From positions 2,912,001 through 2,976,000 of the forward strand of contig OZ220089.1 of the NCBI GenBank assembly GCA_964291625.2: a DNA stretch of 64,000 nt, written 5' to 3'. Position 1 is the stretch's first letter, and each line of letters begins with the position of its first letter. The DNA is from Candidatus Latescibacterota bacterium. GTDB taxonomy: Bacteria > Latescibacterota > UBA2968 > UBA8231. Both the position numbers and the translations under genes were made by a program. The notes under the pieces were generated by a model. That model had not been told where the DNA came from, did not search any database, and was given only the letters and a program-made list of their open reading frames with translations. Positions 18,659 to 35,937 of the stretch are shown in pieces.

Positions 18659-20689
18659 TCAGCCGGAGGGCGCCACGTACGCCGAGCCGGACCGGCCGCT
18701 CTCCCCCGGGTTCACCGGGAAGGGGATGGGGATCCCGTCCCCGTGCCAGGGGAAGGCGTAGCTCGGGTCGTTGCTGAACCGTGAGAGGCCGGCGTCGAGG
18801 CGGACCTTGGCGGCGGGTGGCAGGTCGACGGCGATGTAGCGGCCGTTGACGGCAGTGACGGCTGGTCCCTCCCCTTCGCCGCCGTCAGCCCTCACCTCGG
18901 TGAAGGTGTGCTCCCCGAAGGCGCCGGCCTGCACGATCAGCCGCCGGGAATGCTCGCGGCTGCAGTTCACCAGCTGGACTCCCACGGAGCCGGCGTCGAG
19001 ATGGTCCACGAGGGCGGCCACGTCGGATGGCAGCCCGGGGCGCTCCTCGTCGGCGTCGTAGTAGCGGACCGTGGCGCGCAGGAGCCCGCCGTTGTAGATC
19101 GACTGGGGGGTCCCCATGGTCACCTGGGTCAGGCCCTTGGTGAGGACCGGGTTGGCGGGAATGGCGTTCGCCTGCAGCCGCTCGATCACCGTGCGCCCGT
19201 CCTTGCGCATCTCGTCGATCGCCTGCATCGACCACTCCGCCTCGGCGGACAGGATCTTCTCCGGCCAGTCCGGGTTGTTGCCTTCGTAGTACTGGTAGCG
19301 GGCGAACTCGGTCTGTCCCGAGTTCTTCTCGCTGCCGGTGTCGCCCACGTCGTTCCAGTCGCGCTCCACCTCGCCCTCGCGCACCCGCTCGATCAGTTCG
19401 CGGTCCTCCTGCGACATGGAGGCGTGGTAGAGGTGGGTCAGCTCCTGCATGCGCCAGGGCATCGGTCCGGTGTAGACGTGGCGCATGGGCACGATCGTGT
19501 CCTCCCGCCGCGGCAGGGGCGGGTCGTACTGCCACCCGGAAGGCCCGTAGCGCGTCGGCATGATCAGCTGGCCGTCCTCCCTCTTGATGGAGGCGTCGAG
19601 GAGGACCTTGACCTGGTCCCGCAGCAGGTCGAGATAGCCGAAGTCCCCGGTCAGCAGCACGGCGCACTCGGCGGCGATGTTGAGGCTGTGGAACATGATG
19701 TTGAAGCCCTGGTAGTGGTTCCACCCGTACTGGCCGCCCCAGAAGTTGCCGTTGCGGCGTTCGCCGACGATGCCAGTGGGTCCCACGTTGTCGGGCATGA
19801 CGCCGCCGTTCTTCGCCGCCCGCTCCATCCACGCCTCGGTGTACTCCAGGACCCAGCGCTTGTAGCGCTCGTCGCCCGTGTAGAGGTAGGCGTGGGTCAC
19901 GAGGGCGGTGGCCCCCAGGTTGTTGGGCGTGTCCGCCTGCAGGATCAGCTTGTTGAAGAGGTCGACGATCTCCGCCTGCCGCGCCGGGTCCTCCCACCAG
20001 TCGAGCTCCAGGTCCTCCACGATCGGGTAGAGGCTGGCGCGGACGCCGTAGTAGTTGACCTCGCTCCCAAGCCAGCGCCCCGCCAGGAGCATGGCGTGGG
20101 CGGTCTCGGCGCTCGCCTCCTGCAGCGGCCCCTGGCTCGACTGGAAGGGCGACCGGAGGACCTTGTGCACCGGGTCGTAGTTGGGGGCCTCCGGATCGTC
20201 GCCGGTGTAGAACCCGGCGAAGAGCTGGGCCCGGCGGGCCATCTCCGAGATCGTCGGATCGGCGACGCCGAAGTCGTAGAAGGCCATCATGCCCTCGCCG
20301 AGATGGTGCCACTCCATCGCCTGCTGCAGGTTCCAGAACTCCCGCCGCGCCGAGGGCCGGAAGACCTTCTTGTGGTCGTTGAAGCGGGTGCGGTGGACGA
20401 CGCCCTCGTCGCTGATGCGGGCCGTGGCGTTCCAGGCGGTGGCCGCCATCTCGAGAAGGCTGTCGTCCGCCCCCATGGCGTAGAACAGGCCCCAGTTGTA
20501 GAACTGCTCGAAGAGGTCGTCGAAGTCCTCGGCGTAGAGGATCGCCCCGCCGCGCTCGGTGCACTGGCGGAACCTCAGGCGCGCGGCCTCCTCCATCTGG
20601 GCGATGAGATTGCGCTCCAGCAGGGCCCAGGCCGGCGGCGCGCCCACCCGGGCCGCGGTGATCTGCGGCATGCCATTGGTATCGGTCAC
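18659..20689 (-). CDS. Uncharacterised ~650-aa cytoplasmic protein, family A copy 1 (putative (alpha/alpha)6 barrel enzyme)
   Basis: Paralog of 27095 and 29040: PPAWALLER, DD..E..NWGLFYAMG, EWHH.GEG, AYLYTGD..Y, PDNVGP.G, GGLLRATVRY, QAGAFGEH.FT. Confidence 0.8.
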   Translation of the reverse strand: MTDTNGMPQITAARVGAPPAWALLERNLIAQMEEAARLRFRQCTERGGAILYAEDFDDLFEQFYNWGLFYAMGADDSLLEMAATAWNATARISDEGVVHRTRFNDHKKVFRPSARREFWNLQQAMEWHHLGEGMMAFYDFGVADPTISEMARRAQLFAGFYTGDDPEAPNYDPVHKVLRSPFQSSQGPLQEASAETAHAMLLAGRWLGSEVNYYGVRASLYPIVEDLELDWWEDPARQAEIVDLFNKLILQADTPNNLGATALVTHAYLYTGDERYKRWVLEYTEAWMERAAKNGGVMPDNVGPTGIVGERRNGNFWGGQYGWNHYQGFNIMFHSLNIAAECAVLLTGDFGYLDLLRDQVKVLLDASIKREDGQLIMPTRYGPSGWQYDPPLPRREDTIVPMRHVYTGPMPWRMQELTHLYHASMSQEDRELIERVREGEVERDWNDVGDTGSEKNSGQTEFARYQYYEGNNPDWPEKILSAEAEWSMQAIDEMRKDGRTVIERLQANAIPANPVLTKGLTQVTMGTPQSIYNGGLLRATVRYYDADEERPGLPSDVAALVDHLDAGSVGVQLVNCSREHSRRLIVQAGAFGEHTFTEVRADGGEGEGPAVTAVNGRYIAVDLPPAAKVRLDAGLSRFSNDPSYAFPWHGDGIPIPFPVNPGESGRSGSAYVAPSG

Positions 20690-20794
20690 GAGCTCTCTCC
20701 TCGGGAAGCGGGGCGGCCCAAGCTAGCGAAACCCCCAAGGCGGGACAACGCTGGACGCACCCGGGGAGTCCGGCTATCCTCTCCGCCCTTCGTC

Positions 20795-22339
20795 ATGACC
20801 TCGAGAGCACGACCTCCGCGCTACCGCGTCATCTTCAACTGGGACGGCGACAGCCTCGCCTACGGGGAGCATCCGCAGTCGGCGGAGCGGCTCGTGGACC
20901 AGATCTTCCGTCCTCTCGAGGGCACCCAGGTGGACGCCGTGTTCTGGAGCATCGGCAGCCACGAGGCCCTGTGGCCTTCCGAGGTCCACGAGCGCGAGGG
21001 GGAGCGCACCGGCCGCGTCTACGCCTCGGTGCGGGCCATGCGCCACGCCGAGAACGTGTGGAGCCTGTTCGAGGCCGGCGAGAGCGTCTACCAGGCGATG
21101 GTCGAGCGCGGCCACCAGCTCGGGATGCACGTCTACGTCTCGATGCGGATGAACGACAACCACTTCTACAACACCCGCCCCCACGAGTTCAAGAAGCTGA
21201 ACAAGGGCACCCGGCTGCGGCAGGACCATCCCGAGTGGCTCCTCGACGTCGACGACGTCCCCGAGAGCCGCGGCGTCGGCTCCTGGAACTTCGCTCACGC
21301 CGAGGTCCGCGAGCACAAGCTCTCCTACATCCGCGAGGCCTGCGCCCTGGCCGACTGGGACGGCGTCGAGCTGGACTGGCAGCGCCACCCCTTCCACCTG
21401 CCCCAGCACGACGGTTACCGCCTGCGCTACGCGCTCACCGACCTGCAGCGCGCCGTCCGCGAGATGGCCGACGGGATCGCCGCCGAGAGGGGGCGCCCCT
21501 TCCACGTGGCATCGCGGGTGGCCACGACCCTGGAGGCGTGCCGGCGCATCGGCTACGACGTGCCCCGCTGGTGCGGCGAGGGCCTCTGCGACGTCCTCAT
21601 CGGCGCCGGCGGCTCGTCCACCGACCCCGGCTTCGAGGTGGCCGCCTTCAAACGCCACTCCGACGGCACAGGCATCCGTCTCTACGGCGGCTTCGACAGC
21701 TCGTACCGCCAGGAGGCCGCCCGCCTGGTGAGCCTCCTCGAGTGGCGCGAGGCCTTCTTCCGCGCCGTGGCCGCCGGTTATCTCGCAGAAGGGGCCGACG
21801 GGGTCTACACCTTCAACTGGTTCCCGAAGAAGGCCGACTGGACCGGGCTCCTGAGCACCCTCGGCGCCGAGGAGACCCTGCGGGGCACCGACAAGATCTA
21901 CTCGGCCCTGCGCCGCGGCGACACCTGGCAGGACGACGCCCTGGCCAACGCCGTGAACGACCGCATCCACGGCGAGACCTCGGTGGCGCTCATGCCCGGC
22001 CTCACCGGCGACGGACCGACCTTCACCCTGGGCCTGTACGACGACGTCGGCGAAGGCTCTCTGCAGCTGCAGATCGAGATGGCCCACTGGGCGCCCGGGG
22101 ACGCCGTCCGCGTCACCCTCGACGGCGAGCCCCTCGGAGATCCGGCGATCCGCGACGTGGCGGAGATGGCCGAGGCTCCGCCGGACGTCTCCGAGAACAA
22201 GTGGCTCGTCTGGGACCTGGATCCCGAAGCCGTGGCCAGGGGACCCCACAAGGTCAAGGTCGTCCTGGTCAGCCGCGACCCCCGCCTCGCCCTGCCTCTC
22301 GTCGTCGAGCACGTGGACCTCCACGTGAAGTACCGGTAG
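20795..22339 (+). CDS. Glycoside hydrolase-like family 10 (DUF187-like) TIM-barrel protein, copy 1
   Basis: RVIFNWDG, SMRMND, HPEW, WNFAHAEVR, DGVELDW, GVYTFNW; true start ATG 20795, not 18908. Confidence 0.7.
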   Translation: MTSRARPPRYRVIFNWDGDSLAYGEHPQSAERLVDQIFRPLEGTQVDAVFWSIGSHEALWPSEVHEREGERTGRVYASVRAMRHAENVWSLFEAGESVYQAMVERGHQLGMHVYVSMRMNDNHFYNTRPHEFKKLNKGTRLRQDHPEWLLDVDDVPESRGVGSWNFAHAEVREHKLSYIREACALADWDGVELDWQRHPFHLPQHDGYRLRYALTDLQRAVREMADGIAAERGRPFHVASRVATTLEACRRIGYDVPRWCGEGLCDVLIGAGGSSTDPGFEVAAFKRHSDGTGIRLYGGFDSSYRQEAARLVSLLEWREAFFRAVAAGYLAEGADGVYTFNWFPKKADWTGLLSTLGAEETLRGTDKIYSALRRGDTWQDDALANAVNDRIHGETSVALMPGLTGDGPTFTLGLYDDVGEGSLQLQIEMAHWAPGDAVRVTLDGEPLGDPAIRDVAEMAEAPPDVSENKWLVWDLDPEAVARGPHKVKVVLVSRDPRLALPLVVEHVDLHVKYR

Positions 22340-22356
22340 CGCCGCCGGGAGCCGCC

Positions 22357-23895
22357 ATGGCCGGGAGACCGTACCGGATCATCTACAACTGGGACGGGGC
22401 GCCCCACCACTACGACGAGCACCCCCAGTCGATGGAGGCCTTCCTGCGGAAGACCTACGCGCCGCTGGCCGGCACCCAGGTGGACGCCCTGTTCTGGTGC
22501 ATGGGCACCCACGAGGCGACCTGGGCATCCGACGACCTGCCCGTGAAGGGCGACTCCGTGGGCCGGATCTACGACAGCGTGCTGGTCATGCGGGACACGG
22601 AGAACCTGCGGGCCATGCTCGAAGGGGGCGAGGACCCGTACGCCGCCATGGTCGCCCGGGGCCGCGAGCTGGGGATCGACGTCTGGCCTTCGATCCGCAT
22701 GAACGACCAGCACTTCTGGCAGATCCAGGACCTGGAGACGATGCAGCGCTCCACGGTCAACGAGATGACGGACCTGCGGAAGGAGCATCCCGAGTGGTGC
22801 CTGGGGGAGCACGCCCCGGGCTGGTGCGCCACCTCGTGGAACATGGCCGTCCCCGAGGTGCGGGCCCACAAGCTCGAGATGATCTCCCAGGCCTGCCGGC
22901 TCGCCGACTGGGACGGCGTCGAGCTGGACTGGCAGCGCCACGCCTTCCACCTGCCCGCCAACCACGAGTACCGCCTGCGTTACGCCCTCACCGACCTGCA
23001 GCGGGCGGTGCGCCGCATGACCCGGGAGCTGGGCGAGGAGCGGGGCCGGCCCTTCCCCGTGGCCGTCCGCGTCGCCGCCACCCTGGAGGCCTGCCGCCGT
23101 ATCGGCTACGACGTCGAGACCTGGGTCGACGAGGGCCTGTGCGACATCCTCATCGGCGCCGGCAACTCCGGCACCGACCCGTGCTTCGAGACCGGGGAGT
23201 TCCTGAGGCTCGTGGAGGGCACGGGGATCCAGGTCTATCCGGGCTTCGACTTCGACTCCCGGCAGCAGGGAGCCCGCCTGATCCCCCACGACCGCTGGCG
23301 GGACCGCTGGTTCGCCGGCATGGCCCAGGCACACCTCGACCGCGGCGCCCACGGCGTCTACGTCTTCAACTGGCACGCCGACGAGACCATGCGCCGGGAG
23401 TCGCTGACGACGATCGGCGCTGCCGAAACCCTCCGCGGCCTCGACAAGGCCTACACCGCCGTCCATCGCAGCATCGGTACCAATCCGCTGCGCAAGGACG
23501 CCGAGCGCGACGACCGCCTCTACGGCGAGGTCCCCGTCGACCTGCACCGCACCCTGACCGGGGACGGCCCGGTCTTCCACCTCTCGACCCACGATCCCGG
23601 CGCCGCGGGCGCGCAGCTGCTGATCGAGATGGAGCACTGGTCCCCCACCGGCGACGAGGTGGCCGTCACCCTGGACGGCGCCGCCCTGGGCGCGCCCGAG
23701 GTGCGCAACCAGGCCGCCGAGGACCCCCAGGTCCCCGCCGACGTCGACGAGAACAGCTGGCTCGTGTGGGACCTGGACCCGGCCCGGGCCGCCTCCGGCG
23801 ACCACGAGATCCAGATCGTCCTCGTGAAGCGGGACCCGCGGATACGTCCGCCCCTCACCGTGGCCAACGTCGAGATCTGGACGAGCCATGGCTGA
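22357..23895 (+). CDS. GHL10/DUF187-like TIM-barrel protein, copy 2 (tandem paralog)
   Basis: RIIYNWDG, SIRMND, HPEW, ADWDGVELDWQRH.FHLP..H.YRLRYALTDLQRAVR shared with copy 1. Confidence 0.7.
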   Translation: MAGRPYRIIYNWDGAPHHYDEHPQSMEAFLRKTYAPLAGTQVDALFWCMGTHEATWASDDLPVKGDSVGRIYDSVLVMRDTENLRAMLEGGEDPYAAMVARGRELGIDVWPSIRMNDQHFWQIQDLETMQRSTVNEMTDLRKEHPEWCLGEHAPGWCATSWNMAVPEVRAHKLEMISQACRLADWDGVELDWQRHAFHLPANHEYRLRYALTDLQRAVRRMTRELGEERGRPFPVAVRVAATLEACRRIGYDVETWVDEGLCDILIGAGNSGTDPCFETGEFLRLVEGTGIQVYPGFDFDSRQQGARLIPHDRWRDRWFAGMAQAHLDRGAHGVYVFNWHADETMRRESLTTIGAAETLRGLDKAYTAVHRSIGTNPLRKDAERDDRLYGEVPVDLHRTLTGDGPVFHLSTHDPGAAGAQLLIEMEHWSPTGDEVAVTLDGAALGAPEVRNQAAEDPQVPADVDENSWLVWDLDPARAASGDHEIQIVLVKRDPRIRPPLTVANVEIWTSHG

Positions 23896-25033
23896 GTCCG
23901 CGAGACCCCCGTACCGCGCCGCCATCATCGGGGCCGGCCGCATGGGCGGTCTCCTCGAGGACGAGCAGCCGCCCAACACCTTCCGCAAGCCCCACGGCCA
24001 CTTCGCCGCGTACTCCGCCGTCGACGAGACGCAGGTCGTGGCCGTGGCCGGCCGCCGGCCCGGGCGGCTGAAGCTGTTCACCGAGCGCTTCGGCATCGCC
24101 AACACCTATCTCGACTACCGCGAGATGATCGAGAAGGAGAAGCCGGAGATCGTCAGCGTCACCACCCAGTCCCGGTACCGCGCCGAGGCGATCCTCTTCG
24201 CCATCGAGCACGGCGTCCGCGGCATCTACGCCGAGAAGGCCCTGTGCGCCTCTCTCGCCGAGGCGGATGCCATCGCCGCGGCCTGCCGGTCGAAGGGCGT
24301 GGCCTTCAACTTCGGGGCCGAGCGCCGCTACCACGACGGGTTCGTGCGTCTGCGGCGGGCCATCGAAGCCGGCGACATCGGCCAGCCCCAGTTCGCCTTC
24401 ACCTACTGGTGCACCGACCTGATGAAGCACCACTCCCACTCCTTCGACACGGTGGCCATGCTCCTCGGGGACCCGGCGCCGGTCTGGGCCGAGGGGCGGC
24501 TCGTGGAGCCGGGGGATCCCCTCGACCCCGGGGAGACCCGTATGGGCCCCCGCGAGGGGGACGAGATGACCCGTCAGCCCCTGCCGGTCCCGGCCTACGA
24601 CCCGGAGGGCCACTGCTTCGTCCCCCCCGAGGGCACTCGCTACGCCGAGCCCGTCCTGGAGTTCGCCCGCGTCGGCTACGCCGGCGGCACCGAGTCGGTC
24701 TTCGTGCCGCGGCTCGGGGCGACCGAGTTCGAGGTCCACGGCGACCAGGGGCGGGTCTGGGCCTGGGACGACGGCGCCGACTTCCGCGTGCGGCGCCGCG
24801 CCGAGGGAGGCTGGAAGGAGGAGGTGATCCGGCCCCTGGGCGAGAGTCCCACGGTCGTCATCATCCGCGAGATCGTCCGCGAGCTGGAGACGGGGGAGCG
24901 CACCAGCGGCAACATCGACCGCACCCTGCAGGCGGCCGAGGCCGAGTTTGCCGTGGCCTGCTCCCACCTGCAGGGCGGCGCCCGCATCTCCCTGCCGGTG
25001 GAGGACCGCAGCCTCCGCATCCCCGGCCACTGA
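23888..25033 (+). CDS. Gfo/Idh/MocA family NAD(P)-dependent oxidoreductase
   Basis: IIGAGRMG Rossmann motif, YLDYREM, AEKA (variant of EKP). Confidence 0.85.
   Translation: MAESARPPYRAAIIGAGRMGGLLEDEQPPNTFRKPHGHFAAYSAVDETQVVAVAGRRPGRLKLFTERFGIANTYLDYREMIEKEKPEIVSVTTQSRYRAEAILFAIEHGVRGIYAEKALCASLAEADAIAAACRSKGVAFNFGAERRYHDGFVRLRRAIEAGDIGQPQFAFTYWCTDLMKHHSHSFDTVAMLLGDPAPVWAEGRLVEPGDPLDPGETRMGPREGDEMTRQPLPVPAYDPEGHCFVPPEGTRYAEPVLEFARVGYAGGTESVFVPRLGATEFEVHGDQGRVWAWDDGADFRVRRRAEGGWKEEVIRPLGESPTVVIIREIVRELETGERTSGNIDRTLQAAEAEFAVACSHLQGGARISLPVEDRSLRIPGH
24994..25033 (+). repeat. Direct repeat, left copy (3' end of Gfo gene)
   Basis: GCCGGTGGAGGACCGCAGCC-TCCGC-ATCCCCGGCCACTGA; recurs at 25493-25533. 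Confidence 0.9.
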
Positions 25034-25049
25034 GGACGCCGCCTCGTCG

Positions 25050-25078
25050 TTGACGGTTCGGTCGGGCTTCGGTACCCT
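25050..25078 (+). promoter_or_regulatory. Putative sigma70 promoter of the small coiled-coil gene
   Basis: TTGACG-17 nt-TACCCT. Confidence 0.55.
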
Positions 25079-25141
25079 CGATGTCCGTGCCCCCTGGGGC
25101 CCGGGCACGCTGGCCCCGTCCAGCAAGCGAGGAGAGTACGT

Positions 25142-25462
25142 ATGGAACACCTGAGCCCCTGGTTGTCTCCGGCTGCCGTGGTCGCCGTGATGCTGTTCGT
25201 CTGGCGCCGCCTGGACAAGCGGATCGACGACCTGCGAACCGAATTGCGGACCGAGCTGCGTGGCGAAATGAACGGCCTGCGCGGCGAGATGAACGGCCTG
25301 CGCGACGAGCTGCGCGGCGAAATGAACGGCCTGCGCGGCGAGATGAACGGCCTGCGCGACGAGATGCGGGGGGTGTCGGAGCGCCTGGCGCGGCTCGAAG
25401 GCGCCGCCTTCGGCCCCTGGCCTACCCGCTCGCAGGCGGAGACGGCCCCGGAGGCCGACTGA
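25142..25462 (+). CDS. Small membrane-anchored coiled-coil repeat protein
   Basis: RBS GAGGAG; hydrophobic N-terminal segment, then (ELRGEMNGLRGEMNGLRD)x2 and VSERLARLEG. Confidence 0.75.
   Translation: MEHLSPWLSPAAVVAVMLFVWRRLDKRIDDLRTELRTELRGEMNGLRGEMNGLRDELRGEMNGLRGEMNGLRDEMRGVSERLARLEGAAFGPWPTRSQAETAPEAD
25253..25360 (+). repeat. Intragenic tandem repeat, 2 x 54 bp containing 21-bp subunits
   Basis: gagctgcg(t/c)ggcgaaatgaacggcctgcgcggcgagatgaacggcctgcgcgac twice with one mismatch. Confidence 0.95.
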
Positions 25463-25492
25463 CGGGCAGGAGATCCGGGGGCCGGTCCCGGG

Positions 25493-25533
25493 GCCGGTGG
25501 AGGACCGCAGCCCCTAAAATCCCCGGCCACTGA
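25493..25533 (+). repeat. Direct repeat, right copy
   Basis: GCCGGTGGAGGACCGCAGCC-CCTAAA-ATCCCCGGCCACTGA; 35 identical bases with the left copy. Confidence 0.9.
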
Positions 25534-25556
25534 ACGCCCACCCCCCAGGAGACAAC

Positions 25557-27098
25557 ATGCCGGACTCCGCCTGGCCGCCGCGCCTGATCTACTACAGCGA
25601 CGCCCACCACTTCCACGCCAAGCGCATCGACCCGCCCCTGAGCCATCACAAGATGCGCTGGCCTGTCGACGAGCTCTCGGGGACCGGCGTCGACCTGCTC
25701 GCCTTCGGCCTCGGCTTCGGCGACGTCTACTTCCACCAGACCCGCATCGGCCGCGTCATCGGCCAGGAGCAGGAGGTCTGGGAGCAGTTCATCAACTGGC
25801 GCATCATGCGCATGGTCCGGGACGCCTCGGCCCTGGGCACCGACCAGCTGCGCGAGGTGATCCGCCACGGCCGGGACGCCGGCATCCGCGTCTTCCCCAG
25901 TCTCAAGCTGCAGGACCCGACCCCCCAGGGCGGCGAGCGCTGCGGCTGGCTCAAGTGGCGCCGGGGCATGGAGGTCACCCTGGGTACGGGGGACGACCGC
26001 TTCCCGAGCCACCAGACGGAGTGGTGCTACGACTACGCCAACCCCGCCGTCCGGGAGGAGAAGCTCAGCCTCGTCCGCGAGGTCCTGGAGGACTACGAGG
26101 CCGACGGCATCGAGCTCGACTTCATGTTCTTCCCCCTCTACTTCCGGCGCTCCGAGACCGAGGCCCACGTGGAGACGATGAACCGCTTCGTCGCCGACGT
26201 GCGGGCCCTGGCGCGCGAGATCGGCGAGGCCCGGTCGCGGACGATCCCGGTCATGGCCCGTGTCTGGCACCGGCGCGACGAGAACCTGGGCCTTGGCCTC
26301 GACGTCGAAGCCTGGCTCGCCGCGGGGGACGTGGACGTCGTCGTCGGCCAGATCCCCAACCTGTTCCTGGACCCGTGCGTCACCGACGGCCGCTGGCTGG
26401 CCGACGCCGCCAACGCCGCGGGAGCGGCCTCCTACCTGCGGCCGGGGCGCCGGCTCGAGGATCCCCGCACCGACATCGCCAACATCGAGATGTTCCGCGC
26501 CTTCGGGCAGACAGCGCGGTGGCAGGGGTTCACGGGGGCGTACCTCGGCTACCTGCCGTGGCCCTTCTCGGACGCCGAGTACCGCATCCTGCGCGAGATG
26601 GCCTTCCCCGAGGCGGCCCTGCGCCACGACAAGCGCTACTTCCTGCCGGAGCGGGAGGAGCTGCCCCCCTACGTGCGGCCCGACGGCCGGCGGCTTCCTC
26701 TCGTCCTCGAGGAGGGCGCCGCCGAGACCGTCTGCATCACCGTGGCCGACGAGATCGAGGCGGCCATCGCCGACGGCGAGATCCGCGACCCCGTGCTCAC
26801 CCTGACCTTCCGGCAGTTCTGCGTGGAGGACGAGGTCGCCTTCCGATTCAACGGCCGGGACCTGCCCGTCGAGGGCAAGGGCATCCACGAGCCCCGGCGC
26901 GGCCTCTACTGGCTGCGGTGGACCCTGGACGCCGGGGAGGTGGTGCAGGGGGAGAACACGGTCGAGCTGGAGATCCTGCGCAAGGAGAGGACCGCCGGCT
27001 TCGAGCGCACCCTCACCGGCGTCGAGATCCACCTGCGCTACACCGAGTTCGACCTCCCCGAGGCCCTCGACCCGGTCAAGATCCCGCCGCCCTCATGA
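25557..27098 (+). CDS. GHL10/DUF187-like TIM-barrel protein, copy 3 (divergent)
   Basis: RLIYYSDAHH, PSLKLQD, YDYANPAVR, DGIELDF, C-terminal beta domain like copies 1-2; RBS AGGAG. Confidence 0.7.
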   Translation: MPDSAWPPRLIYYSDAHHFHAKRIDPPLSHHKMRWPVDELSGTGVDLLAFGLGFGDVYFHQTRIGRVIGQEQEVWEQFINWRIMRMVRDASALGTDQLREVIRHGRDAGIRVFPSLKLQDPTPQGGERCGWLKWRRGMEVTLGTGDDRFPSHQTEWCYDYANPAVREEKLSLVREVLEDYEADGIELDFMFFPLYFRRSETEAHVETMNRFVADVRALAREIGEARSRTIPVMARVWHRRDENLGLGLDVEAWLAAGDVDVVVGQIPNLFLDPCVTDGRWLADAANAAGAASYLRPGRRLEDPRTDIANIEMFRAFGQTARWQGFTGAYLGYLPWPFSDAEYRILREMAFPEAALRHDKRYFLPEREELPPYVRPDGRRLPLVLEEGAAETVCITVADEIEAAIADGEIRDPVLTLTFRQFCVEDEVAFRFNGRDLPVEGKGIHEPRRGLYWLRWTLDAGEVVQGENTVELEILRKERTAGFERTLTGVEIHLRYTEFDLPEALDPVKIPPPS

Positions 27099-29029
27099 GA
27101 CGGGGGGTCGAGCTGGACCTGCCCACCGTCACCGCCGCGACGGTCACGGCCCCGCCCGCCTGGGCCCTGCTGGAGCGGCGCCTCTTCGAGGTCATGGAAG
27201 AGGCGGCCGAGCTCCGCGTGAGCCGCTACTCGCAGCGCGGCGGCGTGCCCTACTACGCCGACGACCTGGACGACCTCTACGAGATGATCCACAACTGGGG
27301 CCTGTTCTACGCCATGGGGGCGGACGAGCGGGTCCTGGAGCTGGCCCTGCAGCACTGGAACGCCGTGACCCGCTTCGGCGACGACAGCATCGTCAACCGG
27401 GTGCACCCCCGCTTCACCCAGCAGGTCCACCGCGAGTACTACGGCCTCGTCCATCCCGGCGACGCCGAGTGGCACCACGCCGGCGAGGGCAACATGGCCT
27501 TCTACCACCTCTGCCTGGCCGATCCGACGATCTCGGAGAACGTGCGCCGCGCGGTCCAGTTTGCCGGGTTCTATCTCGGCGACGACGAGGCCGCCCCCAA
27601 CTACGACCCGCGCCACAAGGTGCTGCGCTCCCCCTTCCAGACCAGCCAGGGCCCGTGGCTGGAGGCCACTCCCGAGAAGGCCCACGCCTACCTCTACGGG
27701 CCCGCCGAGCTCGGCGGTGAGGTCAACTACTACGGGACGCGCTCCACCCTCTACCCAGTGGTCCCCGACCTGGAGGCGGACTGGTGGAGGGAGCCCCGCC
27801 GCCGCAGGGAGATCGTCCGCCTCTTCGACCGCATCGTCCTCAACGCCGACTCCCCGAACAACCTCGGGGCCACGGCGCTGATCACCAACGCCTACCTGCA
27901 CACGGGGGACTCCCGCTACCGGGACTGGGTGATCGACTACGTCGGCGTCTGGATGGAGCGCATCCGCGCCAACGGCGGCGTCATCCCCGACAACGTGGGA
28001 CCGACCGGCGAGATCGGCGAGCACCGGGACGGCTGCTGGTGGGGCGGCGTCTACGGCTGGAACAGCTACTGCGGCTTCAACATCCTCTTCCACTCGCTGA
28101 CCATCGCCGCCGAGTGCGCCCTGCTGCTCACCGGCGACTACGGCTACCTCGACCTGCTGCGCTCGCAGATGCGGGTACTCATCGACAACGGCATCACCCG
28201 CGAGGACGGCCAGTTCCTGCAGGCGGTGCGCCACGGGCCCGAGGGCTGGGGCCACAAGATGTGGAACCCGGTGACCGGGCTCGACCAGCCGGTGCGCATG
28301 AACGAGCTGGCCCGCCTGTGGCACGCCTCCCTGTCGCGGCAGGACCGCGAGCTGCTCACCTGGGTCAGGGAGCGGGACGTGACCATCGACTGGAGCGCCA
28401 ACGAGGTCGAGGGTCCCGACTTCTACAAGGGGGTCCACGAGTACCCGCGGTTCCAGTACTACGACGGCCGGAACCCCGGCTGGCCGGAGGCGATCCTGCG
28501 GGCCGAGCTGGAGAGCGTCCTCAAGGTCCACCGCGAGCAGGCCGGGGACGAGCGCACCGTGGAGCGGATCATCGAGGACAACCGCTATCCCCAGAATCCC
28601 GTCCACACCAAGGTCCTGACCAACGTGATGATGGGGGCGCCGCAGCCGGTATACCACGGCGGCCTGCTGCGGGCGACGGTGCGCTACTTCGACCCGGGGA
28701 ACGCCCGCCCCGGCATCCCGCGGGACGTGGCCGCCCTTGTGGACCGGCTCGAGGCCGACCGGGTCGGACTGCAGCTGGTCAACCTCGATCCCGCCGCCGG
28801 CCGGCGGGTGGTGGTGCAGGCCGGGGCCTTCGGCGAGCACGCCTTCACCGAGGTCCGCGTCGACGCCGGCGAGTCGACGCAGGTCACGCCGGTGGAGGGA
28901 AAGCACTTCGCCGTGGACCTGCAGCCGGCGTCCGCCATCCGCCTCGAGGCGGGCATGCGCCGCTTCGTCAACGCCCCCTCCCACGCCTTCCCCTGGCACG
29001 GGGACCGCATTCCCGTGCCCTTCCAGTAG
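27095..29029 (+). CDS. Family A protein, copy 2
   Basis: ATG 27095 overlaps upstream TGA; same motif set as 18659-20689. Confidence 0.8.
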   Translation: MRRGVELDLPTVTAATVTAPPAWALLERRLFEVMEEAAELRVSRYSQRGGVPYYADDLDDLYEMIHNWGLFYAMGADERVLELALQHWNAVTRFGDDSIVNRVHPRFTQQVHREYYGLVHPGDAEWHHAGEGNMAFYHLCLADPTISENVRRAVQFAGFYLGDDEAAPNYDPRHKVLRSPFQTSQGPWLEATPEKAHAYLYGPAELGGEVNYYGTRSTLYPVVPDLEADWWREPRRRREIVRLFDRIVLNADSPNNLGATALITNAYLHTGDSRYRDWVIDYVGVWMERIRANGGVIPDNVGPTGEIGEHRDGCWWGGVYGWNSYCGFNILFHSLTIAAECALLLTGDYGYLDLLRSQMRVLIDNGITREDGQFLQAVRHGPEGWGHKMWNPVTGLDQPVRMNELARLWHASLSRQDRELLTWVRERDVTIDWSANEVEGPDFYKGVHEYPRFQYYDGRNPGWPEAILRAELESVLKVHREQAGDERTVERIIEDNRYPQNPVHTKVLTNVMMGAPQPVYHGGLLRATVRYFDPGNARPGIPRDVAALVDRLEADRVGLQLVNLDPAAGRRVVVQAGAFGEHAFTEVRVDAGESTQVTPVEGKHFAVDLQPASAIRLEAGMRRFVNAPSHAFPWHGDRIPVPFQ

Positions 29030-29039
29030 AGGAGGACGC

Positions 29040-31028
29040 ATGTCCGCTCCTCGGTACGGCCCCTCCATCGCCGCCTCGCAGTTGGCCTCGCCGCCCGAAT
29101 GGGCCCTGCTCCAGCGCCGCCTCATCGAGGTGGGCGAGGAGAACGCGGCCCTCATGGTGGAGAAGCACTGCGCTCCCGGCGGCATGATGTACTACGCCGA
29201 CGACATCGACGACTACTACGAGAAGGTCGACAACTGGAGCGTGTTCTACGCCATGGGCGGCGCCCGCCGGGTCTTCGACGACGCCATGATGATCTGGAAC
29301 GCGTCGACGCGGACCAACGGCCCCCGGGGCAACCCCGTCTTCGGCTGGATGCTGCCCCAGCTCTACAACGAGTACTACTGCCTGGGCCGGCAGGAGGAGT
29401 CGACCTGGGTCCCCGGCCGCCGCATGGTCAACGAGTGGCACCACCACTCCGAGGGGAACATGGCCTTCTACGGCTTCGGCCTCGCCGACCCGGAGATCCC
29501 GGAGAACGTCAACCGCGCCCGCCGCTTCGCGGACATGTTCATCGGCGCCGACCCGGAGGCCCCCAACTGGGACGCCGGCCACCGCATCATCCGCTCCCCC
29601 TTCCCCACCAGCCGCGGACCCGTCTTCGAGGTCACCCTCGAGAACGCCATGGCCGAGCTCCACGGCAGCCGTGTCCACGAGTCCGGGGAGGGGTACCTCT
29701 TCAAGGAGATGGGCACCAAGACGACCCTGCGCCCCCGCCTCGACCGCCTGGAGGAGGGCTGGTGGAAGGAGCCGCCGCGGGCGGCCGAGGTGCTCAAGCT
29801 CTTCAACCGCATGGTCCTCGACGGCGACGTGGCCAACAACCTGGCCGCCTGCAGCCTGGTGACCAACGCCTACCTCTACACGGGCGAGGAGCAGTACAAG
29901 GGGTGGGTCCTCGACTACGTCGAGGCGTGGATGGAGCGCATCCGCAGGAACGACGGCATCATCCCCGACAACATCGGTCCCAACGGCATCATCGGCGAGC
30001 ACCGGGACGGCCAGTGGTGGGGCGGCCTGATGGGCTGGAGCTACTACATGGGCTTCAACATCATCTTCCACGGCCTCGTCTCCGCCGCCGAGTGCGCCCA
30101 GCTGCTCACCGGCGACGCGGGATACCTCGACATCCTCCGCTCCCAGCTCAAGGTCATCGCCGACAACGCGATCACCGGCGACGACGGCCAGCTCCTGATC
30201 CGCTACCGGCACGACCACCGGGGCTGGGTCGACGAGAGCGAGTACGGCCATCTCGGCGCCTCGCCGATGCGGGGCAAGGACCTGGCCCACCTCTGGCACG
30301 CCTCCCTGGCCGAGGAGGACGCCCGGTTGTTCCGGCACTTCCGCGACGGCGAGGTCCGCCGCGACTGGAACGAGATGCTCGGCGCCAGCGAGAAGGACCA
30401 GGGCGACTCGGAGCTGGCCCGCTTCAACTACTACGACGGCCGCAACCCGGACTGGCCGGTGCGGATCCTGCGCCACGAGCTGGACGACGCCCTGCAGCGG
30501 CGGCAGCGGCTGATGGACGAGGACCGCACCCCCCAGGAGCTGGTCGACCAGCACGCCCACCCCGTCAACGGCATCCGCTCCCGCGCCCTCATCCAGACGA
30601 TGCTGGGCTGCCCCCAGATGGTCTACAACGGCAGCCTGCTGCGGGCCACGGTGCGCTACTACGACGCCCGGGCGAAGCGCCCCGGCCTGCCCCCCGAGAC
30701 CGCCGCCCTCGTGGAGGAGATCCGGCCCGACGGCGCCAACCTGCGCCTGGTGAACCTGGGCGCCTCGGACGAGGCCGCGGTGATCGTCCAGGCTGGCGCC
30801 TTCGGCGAGCACGCCTTCACCGGGGCGTCCTGGCGCGAGGGCGAGGAGACCCGGCGCCAGCCGGTGGAAGGCAAGTACCTGACGGTGACGCTGCCGGCGT
30901 CGACCTCGATCCGCCTCGACCTGGGCATGGAGCGCTTCGTCAACACCCCGTCGTACGCCCACCCGTGGCACGAGAAGGGGATTCACGTCGCCTCCGAGCC
31001 GGAGATGCCGCCGGGCTTCCCTCACTGA
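29040..31028 (+). CDS. Family A protein, copy 3
   Basis: RBS GAGGAGG, ATG 29040; PPEWALLQR, EWHHHSEG, AYLYTGEEQY, PDNIGPNG, SLLRATVRY, QAGAFGEHAFT. Confidence 0.8.
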   Translation: MSAPRYGPSIAASQLASPPEWALLQRRLIEVGEENAALMVEKHCAPGGMMYYADDIDDYYEKVDNWSVFYAMGGARRVFDDAMMIWNASTRTNGPRGNPVFGWMLPQLYNEYYCLGRQEESTWVPGRRMVNEWHHHSEGNMAFYGFGLADPEIPENVNRARRFADMFIGADPEAPNWDAGHRIIRSPFPTSRGPVFEVTLENAMAELHGSRVHESGEGYLFKEMGTKTTLRPRLDRLEEGWWKEPPRAAEVLKLFNRMVLDGDVANNLAACSLVTNAYLYTGEEQYKGWVLDYVEAWMERIRRNDGIIPDNIGPNGIIGEHRDGQWWGGLMGWSYYMGFNIIFHGLVSAAECAQLLTGDAGYLDILRSQLKVIADNAITGDDGQLLIRYRHDHRGWVDESEYGHLGASPMRGKDLAHLWHASLAEEDARLFRHFRDGEVRRDWNEMLGASEKDQGDSELARFNYYDGRNPDWPVRILRHELDDALQRRQRLMDEDRTPQELVDQHAHPVNGIRSRALIQTMLGCPQMVYNGSLLRATVRYYDARAKRPGLPPETAALVEEIRPDGANLRLVNLGASDEAAVIVQAGAFGEHAFTGASWREGEETRRQPVEGKYLTVTLPASTSIRLDLGMERFVNTPSYAHPWHEKGIHVASEPEMPPGFPH

Positions 31029-32203
31029 TGGCAACCCCCCCGCCCGGGTACCGCGTGGCCGTCATCGGCTGCGGCAGCCACGGCACCCGCCTGGCCCGGA
31101 CCTTCGACCTGGACCCGCGGTGCCGGGTGGTGGCAGGGGCCAACAGGGGGCGGGAGGGCCTCGACCTGTTCTGCCAGCGTTTCGGCGGCCTGCCCGGCTA
31201 CCAGGACTACCGCCGGCTGCTCGCCGAGGAGGAGTTCGAGATCGCCCTGCTGGCCCTGCCGGTCTCCGTGAACCCCGAGGTCGTCGCCGCCTGCGCCGCC
31301 AGGAAGGGGATCGCCGGCATCTTCAGCGAGAAACCGGTCGCCGTCAGCCTCGCCGAAGCCGACGGCGCCGTCGAAGCCTGCGAGGCCCGGGGCATCCCCT
31401 GGTCGGCGGGGGACATGTTCCGCAACGCCCCCGAGATCTGGACGGCGCGGCGCCTGGTCGAGTCCGGCGAGATCGGCGAGGTGCAGTCGATGAACATCTA
31501 CGGCTGCGGCGGCAACCAGATGTCGGGCCAGGGCTGCCGGCAACTCTCCGACGGCTTCATGTTCGCCGGCGACGCCGAGGTCGAGTGGGTGGTCGGCGCC
31601 GTCGACGGGGAGCCGGCCGACGCGGACCTGGGCCCCATCGACGAGCACAGCGACCACGACCAGGGCGTCGCCTTCGGGGTGATCGGCTTCGCCAACGGCC
31701 TCACCGCCCACCTGCACCGGAACATCACGGCCAGGAACGGGATCGAGGTCCTGGGCTCGGACGGCGTGTTGTTCATCGGCCAGAGCCGCGTCGGCCGGAT
31801 ATGGCGCCGGACCGCCCGCGGCCTCGAGCCGGACCGCAGCCTCTTCCCGGATCCCGATCCCGGGCAGACCGCCCTCCACCAGTACGACGAGGAGGGGTGG
31901 GAGGTCCCGCGCACACGCATGACCGAGAGCGTCACGGCCTTCCTCGACGCCGTCGAGAGCGGCGGGCCCGTGAAGTGCTCGGGCGCCGACATGCGCAAGG
32001 CCCTGGAGGTGGCCGTCGCCGTCCGCGAGTCTCACCGGCGCGGCGTCGTTCGGGTCGATCTGCCTCTCCAGGACCGCGGCCTCCGCATCATTCCCAGCCA
32101 GCGCCGACATGTCGGCCGCCGGGAGTCGGAAGGCAACGAGGCCTTCCTCGCCCACATCCGCGATCACAAGCGGGACCAGACCAGCGAAATGGATCCAGGA
32201 TGA
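31028..32203 (+). CDS. Gfo/Idh/MocA family oxidoreductase
   Basis: TGATG overlap; VIGCGSHG, YQDYRRLL, SEKP, ESHRRG..VDLP..DR. Confidence 0.85.
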   Translation: MATPPPGYRVAVIGCGSHGTRLARTFDLDPRCRVVAGANRGREGLDLFCQRFGGLPGYQDYRRLLAEEEFEIALLALPVSVNPEVVAACAARKGIAGIFSEKPVAVSLAEADGAVEACEARGIPWSAGDMFRNAPEIWTARRLVESGEIGEVQSMNIYGCGGNQMSGQGCRQLSDGFMFAGDAEVEWVVGAVDGEPADADLGPIDEHSDHDQGVAFGVIGFANGLTAHLHRNITARNGIEVLGSDGVLFIGQSRVGRIWRRTARGLEPDRSLFPDPDPGQTALHQYDEEGWEVPRTRMTESVTAFLDAVESGGPVKCSGADMRKALEVAVAVRESHRRGVVRVDLPLQDRGLRIIPSQRRHVGRRESEGNEAFLAHIRDHKRDQTSEMDPG

Positions 32204-33093
32204 CCTTCCCCGCCTCCGAGATGCACGCCGTGGCCGGGAGCGTCCCGGGCCGCATCGGCTTCTACGTGAAGGACCTCGAGACCGGGCTGCAGTGCGAGCA
32301 CAACGCCGACGAGCCGCTGCCCACGGCCAGCACCATCAAGGTGGCGGCCCTGATCGAGGTCTTCCGCCAGGACCGGGAGGGCCGCCTGTCCCTCGACGAC
32401 CGTCACCGCGTGCCCCGGGACGTCTCCGCCCAGGGCACCGGCGTGCTGCGCATCGCCCGCGATCATCCGGAGCTGACGGTGCGCGACTACTGCCGGCTGA
32501 TGATGGCCGTCAGCGACAACGTCGCCACCGACACCCTCGTGGGCCTCGTGACCCCCGCGGCGATCAACGCCACCATGGAGTCCATGGGCTTCCATCAGAC
32601 CCGGTTCCCCATGCCCATCGGCGTCTGGCACTACCTCATGGACGGCATCACCGCCACGCCGTCGCGGGAGAACGACGAGCTGAAGGTCGCCGGCCGGCTC
32701 GGCGGCGACGGTGACCGGGAGCTGCCCTTCGTCAGCTCGCTGGACAACAACGTCGCCTCCGCGCGGGACCTCGGACGGATGATGGAGAGGATGGAGCGGC
32801 GCCAGATCGTCGACGCCGGGGCCTGCGATGAGATGCTGGAGATGATGAAGCAGCCGAGGAACCCGAACCGGATCCGGCAGTATCTCAGGCCGGAGATCGA
32901 GGCGGCGCGCAAGAACGGGGGCAGCCGCATCAAGGCCGACGCCGGCGTCGTCTACCTGCCCACGGGCCCCCTGGTCATCGCCGCCCTCGCTACCACCGAC
33001 ACCCGCGAGGAGCAGCAGAAGGGCATGGACGCCATCGGCGAGATCAGCCGCCTGGCCATCGCAACCCTGTCACCGGAGAGCCTGATCGAATGA
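32200..33093 (+). CDS. Serine hydrolase, class A beta-lactamase-like fold, no signal peptide
   Basis: TASTIK (SxxK), SDN, RKNG (KTG variant); ATGA overlaps on both sides. Confidence 0.8.
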   Translation: MTFPASEMHAVAGSVPGRIGFYVKDLETGLQCEHNADEPLPTASTIKVAALIEVFRQDREGRLSLDDRHRVPRDVSAQGTGVLRIARDHPELTVRDYCRLMMAVSDNVATDTLVGLVTPAAINATMESMGFHQTRFPMPIGVWHYLMDGITATPSRENDELKVAGRLGGDGDRELPFVSSLDNNVASARDLGRMMERMERRQIVDAGACDEMLEMMKQPRNPNRIRQYLRPEIEAARKNGGSRIKADAGVVYLPTGPLVIAALATTDTREEQQKGMDAIGEISRLAIATLSPESLIE

Positions 33094-34148
33094 ACGACAA
33101 CCGCATCGAGTGCCTCTTCCTCTCGCAGGAGGACCTGCTGAAGGCCGGCTGCCTGGACATGCGGCTGGCCATAGGCGCCGCCGAAGAGGCGATGCTCGCC
33201 TTCCGGAGGGAGGAGATCCTCTTCCCCGACAAGGTGGTGCAGATCTTCGACGAGGGTACGCAGGAGCGCATCAACTGCCTGCCCGCAACCCTGCTGACGG
33301 ACAAGGTGTGCGGGGTCAAGTGGGTGTCGGTCTTCCCGCGCAACCCCGAGAAGTACGGCATGCAGAACCTCTCCGCCGTCATCATCCTGTCCGAGATCGA
33401 GCGCGGTTTCCCCATCGCCTTCATGGATGGAACCCTGTGCTCGAACGTGCGCGTCGGAGCGATGGGGGCCCTGGCCGCCAGGCACCTGGCGCGGCCCGAC
33501 TCGAGGAGCATCGCCTTCATCGGGGCGGGGGAGCAGGCCAAGATGCACCTCATCGGCATGAAGACGGTCGTCCCCGGGATCGAGGAGTGCCGGGTCTCCG
33601 CCAAGTCGGCCGACGAGGAGCAGCAGTTCATCGAGGAGATGCGGCCCCTCTTCGCGGAGATGCGGTTCACCGCCGCGGGAACCGACGCGCGGCGGGCCAT
33701 GGAGGGGGCGGACATCCTCGTTACCGCCACCAGCGCCCAGGCCCCTCTCCTCAAGGCGGCGTGGATGAAGCCGGGAAGCTTCTACAGCCACATCGGCGGC
33801 TGGGAGGACGAGTACGCCGTGGCGAAGCAGTGCGACAAGATCGTCTGCGACGACTGGGAGACGGTGAAGCACCGGACCCAGACTCTGAGCCGCATGTACA
33901 AGGACGGCGAGTTGAAGGACGAGGACGTCCACGCCAACCTGGTGGAGATCATCGCCGGCGAGAAGAGCGGCCGGGAGACGCCGGAAGAGAGGGCCTACTT
34001 CAACGCCGTCGGCCTCGCCTACGTCGACGTGGCGATCGCCCACGCCATGTACCTCCGCGCCCGGGAAGCGGGGGCGGGACGGATGTCGAGTATCCAGGAG
34101 ACCATGATCTTCCAGCACCCGGAGCTGGCGGACTGGATCCGGATGTAG
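33090..34148 (+). CDS. Ornithine cyclodeaminase/mu-crystallin family protein
   Basis: GVKWVSVFP.N, RVGAMGALAA, FIGAGEQA, DILVTATS, GLAYVDVA. Confidence 0.9.
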   Translation: MNDNRIECLFLSQEDLLKAGCLDMRLAIGAAEEAMLAFRREEILFPDKVVQIFDEGTQERINCLPATLLTDKVCGVKWVSVFPRNPEKYGMQNLSAVIILSEIERGFPIAFMDGTLCSNVRVGAMGALAARHLARPDSRSIAFIGAGEQAKMHLIGMKTVVPGIEECRVSAKSADEEQQFIEEMRPLFAEMRFTAAGTDARRAMEGADILVTATSAQAPLLKAAWMKPGSFYSHIGGWEDEYAVAKQCDKIVCDDWETVKHRTQTLSRMYKDGELKDEDVHANLVEIIAGEKSGRETPEERAYFNAVGLAYVDVAIAHAMYLRAREAGAGRMSSIQETMIFQHPELADWIRM

Positions 34149-34151
34149 CGC

Positions 34152-35216: not shown

Positions 35217-35217
35217 G

Positions 35218-35937
35218 ATGTTCCTCGATGCTCTGAAGGATCTCTTCGGGCCCCGGCTGCTGGATGAACACCCGGACGAGTGGGGGATCACCGAGCACTG
35301 CCCGGACCCTTCCGCGATAGGCTACGCGACGACGATCACGCCGAGGTCCATCTCGGCGGCGCTCGACCTCGGAGCGGACGTGATCGTGACCCATCACGAT
35401 GCCTGGAGCTTCATGTATGAGCAGCGGGAGCGGGTGTACGAGCTGCTGCGAGAGAGCTGCCTGACCCATGTGTGGGCACACCTGCCGCTGGATCATGCGG
35501 ATTTCGGCACCTCGGCCGCCCTGCTCTCGCAGGCGGGCTGCAAGGAGGTCTGGAAGCCGACGGAGGGAGAGGTGCGGATCGGCGAGCTGCAGGAACCGAC
35601 CGATGTCGAGGGGATCCGTTCGGTCTTCGACTCCCTGCTGCGGGAACAGCCGCGGAGTCTGCACGACTCCGGTCGAGCGATCCGCAGGATCGGCTGCGTC
35701 ACCGGCGCCGGCGTCTACACGGGCTACCTCAAGGACGCCATGCCCCATGACATCGATCTCTACCTGACGGGCGAGACCAGCCTGTACTTGTGCGAGTACG
35801 CCATTCACCACGGAGTCAGCGTCCTGGTCTACTCGCACAATCATACCGAGCTGCCGGGGGTGCGGGCCTTCGCGGAGCGGCTGGGCCAGGCCCTGCAGCT
35901 GGAGGTGAAAGGACACCTCGGCGACTCGCACTTCTGA
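35218..35937 (+). CDS. Nif3-like dinuclear metal centre protein
   Basis: VIVTHH, AHLPLD, VTGAG, YLTGE, SHNHTE; codon usage visibly less GC3-biased than neighbours. Confidence 0.85.
   Translation: MFLDALKDLFGPRLLDEHPDEWGITEHCPDPSAIGYATTITPRSISAALDLGADVIVTHHDAWSFMYEQRERVYELLRESCLTHVWAHLPLDHADFGTSAALLSQAGCKEVWKPTEGEVRIGELQEPTDVEGIRSVFDSLLREQPRSLHDSGRAIRRIGCVTGAGVYTGYLKDAMPHDIDLYLTGETSLYLCEYAIHHGVSVLVYSHNHTELPGVRAFAERLGQALQLEVKGHLGDSHF

Follow-up and report, generated by a model that had tools for sequence, protein, structure and literature searches.

DUF8034, a family of predicted helical toroid proteins, as a candidate sugar-acid lyase of bacterial sugar-oxidation operons

The window analysed here, a stretch of 64,000 nucleotides from a Candidatus Latescibacterota genome (positions 2,912,001 to 2,976,000 of contig OZ220089.1, assembly GCA_964291625.2), carries three copies of one gene family, DUF8034 (family A; Table 1), among genes resembling GH156 sialidases and Gfo/Idh/MocA oxidoreductases. 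All three DUF8034 frames translated without a stop, and the pairwise identities to copy 1 were 59% and 46% over end-to-end alignments. The GC content at codon position 3 was 0.96-0.98, as against 0.44 at position 2, a coding-type pattern like that of real genes in this 70% GC genome; we therefore concluded that the copies are real genes, and a frameshift or shadow open reading frame (ORF) artefact was ruled out by the open frames together with this pattern. The start of copy 1 agreed with that of relatives at two other loci (L193 and L194), whose match begins at its residue 1, and none of the three copies has a hydrophobic N-terminus. The start of copy 2 overlaps the stop of the GH156-like gene upstream of it, and copy 3 begins 10 bases past copy 2 and shares one base of its stop with the start of the gene that follows, indicating that copies 2 and 3 lie inside one operon. 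Thus, the three related genes of about 650 amino acids reported in a preliminary description of this DNA were borne out, as was its view that the family is expanded and uncharacterised; the genome holds 10 full-length copies, these three included. Two of the 10, both at contig ends, are about 96% identical in DNA and probably represent one gene assembled twice. The contig ends in question (G000:C1:4782058-4784040 and G000:C2:1123007-1124980) share about 5 kb at 93-98% identity, one DUF8034 copy included, a probable case of strain variation or assembly overlap.

None of the three copies matched a family in local Pfam and NCBIfam searches, no PDB sequence search, with single sequences or with profiles, gave a family match, and models of the enolase superfamily, UxaA/GarD, IlvD/EDD, and UxuA in Pfam and NCBIfam matched none of the copies. 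The family name came from homologues rather than from a direct model score: all 120 listed homologues (53-93% identity; the scoring of 7,994 candidates gave 633) carry PF26099, a homologue scored 0.99 with a TM of 0.91 against the DUF8034 clusters of the Atlas, and by this assignment the window proteins belong to Pfam PF26099/DUF8034 (Pfam 38.1). DUF8034 is a catalogued name without a function, and no characterised member was found. The preliminary description had recognised no named family; a Pfam entry exists, and the searches of Pfam, NCBIfam, and the PDB gave no full-length match to a characterised family. Neither PF26099 nor DUF8034 was found in any paper in a literature search whose coverage of subscription journals was slight; judged by title and the start of the abstract, nothing relevant appeared on a toroid aldonate dehydratase or on 2-O-methyl-sugar catabolism by elimination, and no paper on the mechanism of PL2 came up. 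The family comprises at least 350 cluster representatives (50% identity) at E <= 1e-30 and 1,784 at E <= 0.001, and occurs in 97 of 121 sampled genomes of the window's phylum, with up to 11 scored matches per genome, and in 40 of 120 Paenibacillaceae genomes. Named relatives come from SAR202, Poribacteria, Latescibacterota, Devosia, Microbacterium, Paenibacillus, Chloroflexota, Planctomycetota, and Cyclobacterium, and compact DUF8034 operons occur in cultured Paenibacillus and Devosia strains. Fusions of DUF8034 (P0134, P0138, P0198) were also seen, with a secretion-type C-terminal domain, MORN repeats, and an N-terminal FGE-sulfatase-like domain.

An AlphaFold model built on a 119-sequence alignment (pLDDT 95.9, pTM 0.95; barrel alone, pLDDT 95.6) predicted for copy 2, whose residue numbers are used throughout, a helical toroid (about residues 22-513) that carries an insertion at about 165-250 and is followed by a beta-sandwich at 529-622. 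The helix pairs are 22-45/58-74, 78-94/121-142, 147-161/254-270 (interrupted by the insertion), 273-292/327-346, 349-364/402-412, 415-426/449-456, and 463-483/506-513; read from the DSSP string, these 14 main helices would form seven hairpins. The (alpha/alpha)6 toroid of the preliminary description therefore held as a predicted toroid, but with seven hairpins counted rather than six. Its A...TG[DE]..Y helix cap occurs twice in each of the three copies. All nine of its motifs are present in all three, but EWHH..EG is not family-wide as written: among 243 sequences only W126, H128, and E131 of it are shared generally; position 125 varies between D and E, and H127 marks the window's clade. The motifs RATVRY.D, QAGAFGEH, and RF.N.PS.A.PW sit in or beyond the C-terminal beta-sandwich, outside the helical barrel.

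Conservation among the 243 sequences was 0.98 for D59, 0.95 for D60, 0.98 for E63, 0.95 for W126, 1.0 for H128 and E131, 0.99 for D252, 0.91 for N256, and 0.96 for W322, and all nine residues are kept in the three window copies. In the model each sits where an inner helix begins or just ahead of it: D59/D60/E63 at helix 1, W126/H128/E131 at helix 2, D252/N256 at helix 3, and W322 at helix 4. Judged by this topology, they would cluster in one pocket. The face that bears the inner-helix starts is the active-site face of helical toroids, and we regard these nine residues as the likely, model-based candidate catalytic set. The active site formerly proposed from DD.E and EWHH keeps its near-invariant DD..E and H..E elements as the likely site. 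H128 is the only invariant histidine in the barrel, H582 lying in the beta-sandwich, and acids and aromatics are plentiful in the putative pocket. No conserved cysteine column and no conserved lysine were found in alignments of 119 and 243 sequences, nor was there a conserved arginine or lysine near the acids at the starts of inner helices 1-3.

To place the family in its pathways we examined the best 80 of 565 GTDB loci, retrieved with a query of another clade, together with the genome's own loci; genes were called with an ORF heuristic of ours and took their labels from the Pfam-checked representatives that they resembled, so that single labels may err. Genes that recurred nearby were those for sugar ABC transport (19-22 loci), short-chain dehydrogenase/reductase (SDR; 21), enolase-superfamily MR_MLE (18), aldo-keto reductase (AKR; 18), Gfo/Idh/MocA (16), and amidohydrolase lactonase (9), with mutarotases, FAH, aldolases, and glycerate kinase besides, which together are parts of non-phosphorylative sugar oxidation. 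As outlined in the portions of two papers available to us, this route runs from mutarotase through dehydrogenase, lactonase, and dehydratase to an SDR and hydrolase or to an aldolase (PMC11199699; PMC13406643). Several loci had the pathway complete but for the dehydratase: L039 and L143 contain lactate-utilisation genes, IclR, SDR, FAH, mutarotase, lactonase, SDR, and DUF8034; L025 is complete in the same sense, with DUF8034 present; and L032, with AKR, lactonase, DUF8034, RraA aldolase, DUF8034, and a DHDPS-type gene, lacks the dehydratase alone. The counterpart without DUF8034 has the order UxaA-AKR-lactonase-SDR-FAH-Lut (L305, L307); UxaA/GarD proteins include D-arabinonate and L-fuconate dehydratases, according to the part of PMC6336799 consulted. 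At other loci, which have no sugar dehydrogenase-lactonase pair, glycerate kinase and 2-hydroxyacid dehydrogenase are joined by several enolase-type genes. Carbohydrate-active neighbours across the loci were GH95, GH139, GH78, GH43, GH88, and beta-helix proteins.

We pursued this association in 120 Paenibacillaceae genomes, 93 of which contain the lactonase, using 60 DUF8034 loci (after removal of fragments and the merging of one split gene) and, for comparison, every third of 125 listed lactonase loci without DUF8034 nearby (40 loci; 29 more matches were unlisted), one of which turned out to hold a split DUF8034 gene. The commonest order was AKR, DUF8034, lactonase, mutarotase. AKR was present in 49 of the 60 DUF8034 loci (directly upstream in 25), mutarotase in 36, lactonase in 33 (directly downstream in 29), and FAH in seven. 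The five best solved relatives of the AKR are L-galactose dehydrogenases, the sole NCBIfam match of the lactonase tested was L-fucono-1,5-lactonase, below cut-off, and PDB and NCBIfam matches assigned no substrate to the SDR neighbours. Forty-nine loci contained the lactonase with AKR or SDR. A known consumer of the sugar acid (enolase-type, UxaA/GarD, UxuA, or short Zn-dehydrogenase) was encoded at none of the 34 with DUF8034, as against 13 of the 15 without it (Zn-dehydrogenase only, nine; MR_MLE or UxaA only, three; both, one; neither, two), and no IlvD/EDD was present among 67 further proteins of these loci. The IclR-SDR-FAH cassette, for which both sets were hand-picked, was accompanied by UxaA/GarD or MR_MLE in 15 of 20 loci from genomes lacking DUF8034, and by a consumer (one UxaA, one UxuA) in two of 20 from genomes having it. 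The downstream SDR itself was found in 40/40 DUF8034 genomes and 56/80 others. In the AKR tree a clade of 58, apart from the AKRs linked to Zn-dehydrogenase and UxaA, drew 57 members from DUF8034 loci; the 58th, from L191, nested within this clade, as the L191 lactonase did among the DUF8034-linked lactonases. L191 has the transporter, beta-helix, GH88, lactonase, and mutarotase genes of DUF8034 loci, with an enolase-superfamily gene and a DUF455 gene in the DUF8034 slot. The same enolase subfamily also occurs at L323, where the same AKR lies downstream of it, and at L325, flanked by SDR and mutarotase, and four of five other genomes that have it show DUF8034-like neighbours.

On the strength of this gene context we propose, with moderate confidence, that DUF8034 proteins are metal-assisted beta-eliminating lyases that convert aldonates to 2-keto-3-deoxy acids. 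The preliminary description had suggested a carbohydrate-active or lyase family, and the neighbourhoods of relatives favour the lyase side of it, acting on small sugar acids rather than on polymers. The enzyme would remove the C2 proton and expel the oxygen group at C3. D59, D60, E63, E131, and D252, at the starts of inner helices 1-3, would bind a divalent metal holding the substrate carboxylate, a role given to the metal because no arginine or lysine is conserved at the inner-helix starts, and H128 would serve as base or acid. In the relatives the substrate would be an aldonate that the dehydrogenase and lactonase of the operon itself produce, presumably one that the cell's known dehydratases refuse, such as a less common stereoisomer or a sugar acid with an O-substituent, and the product would pass to the SDR and FAH-family hydrolase pair or to an aldolase. 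The window's copies would keep the chemistry and differ in substrate.

Several results weigh against this proposal. A UxaA/GarD-type dehydratase is encoded elsewhere in 39 of the 40 DUF8034 Paenibacillaceae genomes, several of which also have the Zn-dehydrogenase route, and five have 5-7 MR_MLE matches each. The cassette-type UxaA was present in 21/40 of them and in 41/56 of the other genomes with SDR; with the 900-aa UxaA counted too, the figures were 39/40 and 52/56. DUF8034 thus fills no genome-wide gap, and a consumer could act in trans; the strict idea that it replaces a missing gene was rejected on this result. DUF8034 is therefore no substitute for the standard fuconate or arabinonate step, and its operon is an extra route with its own dehydrogenase, which fits a different substrate yet also allows an in-trans consumer with DUF8034 doing something else. 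Enolase-type genes stand beside DUF8034, not in its stead, in Devosia, freshwater Actinobacteria, and the window's clade, and among all 60 Paenibacillaceae loci MR_MLE occurred in two and UxaA in two more. The loci are kin by descent and partly hand-picked, so that the counts are inflated and are not independent trials. A hydrophobic N-terminus in 14 of 96 relatives, and a secretion-type C-terminal domain, just below cut-off, in one, make some members look exported, which would not be expected of a dehydratase. Glycosidases gave the best fold matches (GH76, GH47, and GH88; Z 14-14.7), the lyase PL2 scoring lower (Z 12.5). The window copies themselves are at best 39-44% identical to the locus-derived, operon-linked members, form a separate clade with E125, H127, and N255 where those members have D, M, and L, and lie in scrambled neighbourhoods with no lactonase or mutarotase nearby; a mutarotase profile found no match in the genome.

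On the tree the three copies group within a 44-member clade (support 0.997). For this clade we counted neighbours at 117 flanking positions in 68 metagenome loci and 20 loci of the phylum, some of them near-duplicates, the window among them, and not all on the tree, with expectations taken from this genome's gene counts over an assumed 5,000 genes. Observed counts, with expected ones in brackets, were MR_MLE 12 (1.3), GH156-like 10 (0.4), PhyH 10 (1.6), Gfo/Idh/MocA 9 (2.1), and DHDPS-type 3 (0.3), together with one AKR and no lactonase. We concluded that for the window's clade the acid-sugar link holds but not the operon slot; the basis for transferring the proposed reaction to the window copies is the residues that they share. 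The three GH156-like genes (Table 1) received no Pfam name and matched 6RZD with a profile E value of 1e-57; the genome has 16 such matches. Their residues were compared with the catalytic residues given for GH156 (EnvSia156) in the part of PMC6811678 consulted, and the losses in the third gene make another substrate or reaction likely.

Table 1. DUF8034 copies and neighbouring genes in the window (window positions)
Feature	Position	Strand	Remarks
DUF8034 (family A) copy 1	18659-20689	-	676 aa; GTG start; N-terminus not hydrophobic
GH156 sialidase-like gene	20795-22339 (start approximate)	+	divergent from copy 1; Asp14, Arg129, His134, Arg202 equivalents kept
Second GH156-like gene	22357-23895 (start approximate)	+	Asp14, Arg129, His134, Arg202 equivalents kept
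Gfo/Idh/MocA oxidoreductase	23888-25033	+	Pfam
Third GH156-like gene	25557-27098	+	directly upstream of copy 2; Asp14 equivalent kept, His134 and arginine equivalents lost
DUF8034 copy 2	27095-29029	+	644 aa; residue numbering reference
DUF8034 copy 3	29040-31028	+	662 aa
Gfo/Idh/MocA oxidoreductase	31028-32203	+	coupled to copy 3

The operon runs on from about 32200 to 35937 on the plus strand with beta-lactamase-fold, ornithine cyclodeaminase-like, alpha/beta hydrolase, and DUF34/NIF3 genes. Beyond it are a 390-aa protein without a Pfam match (36626-37798, minus strand), a relative of which lies near DUF8034 at L268, and two DUF6785/DUF6784 membrane proteins (38990-40981, plus; 41954-43861, minus), candidate transporters of which 12 genes occur near DUF8034 in loci of the phylum. 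Elsewhere in the genome another DUF8034 paralog (G000:C1, about 4190100-4199851) is accompanied by an enolase-superfamily gene, an RraA-type aldolase, SDR, PhyH, and aldehyde dehydrogenase. Among the relatives' loci, proteins of 475-760 aa without a Pfam match recur beside glycosidases (L134:2560-4830, L136:4803-6899, L136:9053-10918, L133:319-2382, L101:9900-11327) and are candidate new carbohydrate-active families; one resembles ulvan lyase N-terminal domains by its features. DUF455 (ferritin-like) genes in or beside sugar-acid operons (L191:4296-5653, spanning two frames with an ambiguous base; L098; L188) might supply an oxidative step such as O-demethylation, and loci in which lactonase, in some cases AKR, and Zn-dehydrogenase are followed by transketolase and fructose-6-phosphate aldolase (L159, L164, L169, L170, L173, L181, L184) possibly encode an undescribed route for an oxidised aldonate.

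In a bolder form of the proposal, which we think unlikely, DUF8034 would be a new class of toroid lyase that, together with GH88 or GH156 partners, acts on O-substituted sugar acids beyond the reach of ordinary dehydratases. It would eliminate methanol, sulfate, or an entire sugar from C3 of the aldonate or, alternatively, dehydrate a 2-O-methyl aldonate to an enol ether, which a GH88- or GH156-type partner would then hydrolyse; the whole would amount to an enzymatic "peeling" of methylated or capped sugars, for example the 2-O-methyl-fucose of rhamnogalacturonan II. Hints of it are the dedicated AKR clade in genomes that already possess routes for fucose/arabinose and for galactose, an intact GH88 that separates AKR from DUF8034 at 8/60 loci (some of them explained instead by a lyase-like neighbour), formaldehyde dehydrogenase nearby in four loci, the GH156-like genes adjoining the window's copies, and, at 2/60 loci, a GH139 in the same operon, that family being described as a 2-O-methyl-fucosidase in the part of PMC12282258 consulted.

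The top rank of GH76 and GH47 among the fold matches would also suit a new glycoside hydrolase family, in which an acid pair of the toroid (D59/D60 or E63/E131), possibly aided by Ca2+ as in GH47, cleaved oligosaccharides brought into the cell; the freed sugar would go to mutarotase, dehydrogenase, and lactonase, and the sugar acid to enzymes encoded elsewhere. The pocket of acids and aromatics, the sugar ABC transporters, GH95, GH139, GH78, GH43, GH88, and beta-helix neighbours, the window's GH156-like genes, the dehydratases available in trans, and the exported look of some members all agree with such an enzyme. Hydrolysis would leave unexplained, however, the absence of consumers from DUF8034 loci, which holds across several gene orders, the swap with an enolase-superfamily gene, and the glycerate kinase/2-hydroxyacid dehydrogenase/enolase-type loci without a dehydrogenase-lactonase pair, and the fold matches are tied at identities too low for catalytic residues to be transferred. 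We consider it improbable.

Beside enolase-type genes, and with dehydratases in trans, an epimerase or isomerase would fit as well: in the style of AGE, cellobiose 2-epimerase, YihS, or mandelate racemase, it would exchange the C2 proton and feed the new stereoisomer to a standard dehydratase. AGE-family proteins were the top Foldseek matches (E 1e-5) and reached Z 11-13 in the barrel fold search, and the L191 swap is compatible, the enolase superfamily including epimerases. AGE epimerases, however, rely for catalysis on two or three histidines of the inner helices and the DUF8034 barrel has H128 alone invariant, and the otherwise complete pathways at L039 and L025 would still be short of a dehydratase; this seems to us quite unlikely. 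By analogy with the toroid transaldolase AprG (fold match Z 12.2), DUF8034 might instead be a carbon-carbon lyase or transaldolase for keto-sugar acids freed by its GH156-like neighbours, which occupy 10 of the 117 flanking positions (0.4 expected), and most Paenibacillaceae operons have no downstream cleavage enzyme in cis (FAH, 7/60). The aldonate would then stay unconsumed in all 34 loci, no lysine is conserved, and separate aldolases or the SDR-FAH pair are present in the same operons (L032, L095, L039, L101), making this highly improbable.

If the lyase proposal is true, DUF8034 provides a further structural solution to sugar-acid dehydration, with a new fold for that reaction, and closes a gap in many annotated non-phosphorylative sugar pathways. 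It would also join the enzyme families that have expanded in marine lineages oxidising a wide range of sugars; for SAR202 such expansions are described in the part of PMC10444878 consulted. Should the O-substituted form hold, the marine expansion would be a route for consuming modified sugars of dissolved organic matter.

The helical toroid is known mainly from glycosidases, polysaccharide lyases, and epimerases. In the barrel search GH76, GH47, YyaL (7tkv), and GH88 tied at Z 13.9-14.7 (root-mean-square deviation (rmsd) 4.4-7.3), values that give the fold class only, Z near 13 being common among helical proteins. Structure prediction with a fold search, the check suggested in the preliminary description, thus returned the toroid class without a single family: neither the whole-protein nor the barrel-only search singled one out, and the matches (GH47, GH76, GH88, PL2, AGE, LanC), tied at 7-12% identity to the modelled protein and rmsd 4.4-5.6, name no family, so that no catalytic residue can be carried over. 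The longest toroid alignments were to GH47 (356-367 residues, Z 13-14.7) and PL2 (373 residues, Z 12.5), from which DUF8034 differs in its added beta-sandwich and at 7-9% identity and rmsd 4.4-4.7. GH47 and PL2 are seven-hairpin toroids that use a metal, and the catalytic residue of PL2 is an arginine, which has no conserved counterpart at the DUF8034 inner-helix starts. The 14 main helices of the model recall GH47, but Z was tied with that of six-hairpin families, and Pfam and PDB searches gave no sequence match to GH47. GH76 also has a DD pair, with which D59-D60 might correspond in position, and there was no sequence match to GH76 either. GH76, GH88/GH105, AGE epimerases, YyaL, LanC, and GH127 are helical toroids like DUF8034 (Z 11-14.7), with shorter alignments (272-328 residues) and no sequence match. 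GH127 also resembles it in having C-terminal beta domains, but LanC and GH127 bind zinc through conserved cysteines, of which DUF8034 has none, and the multi-histidine requirement of the AGE superfamily finds no equivalent in it. The known acid-sugar dehydratases (FucD of the enolase superfamily, the UxaA/GarD Herbaspirillum D-arabinonate dehydratase, IlvD/EDD, and UxuA), whose pathway and mechanism we took from the parts consulted of PMC11199699 and PMC6336799, have no sequence or fold kinship with this 640-680 aa toroid and beta-sandwich, which, having no conserved cysteines, would carry no Fe-S cluster. In relatives DUF8034 holds the same operon slot as these enzymes, between the lactonase and the 2-keto-3-deoxy-aldonate dehydrogenase and hydrolase or aldolase, and the chemistry that we propose for it is alike.

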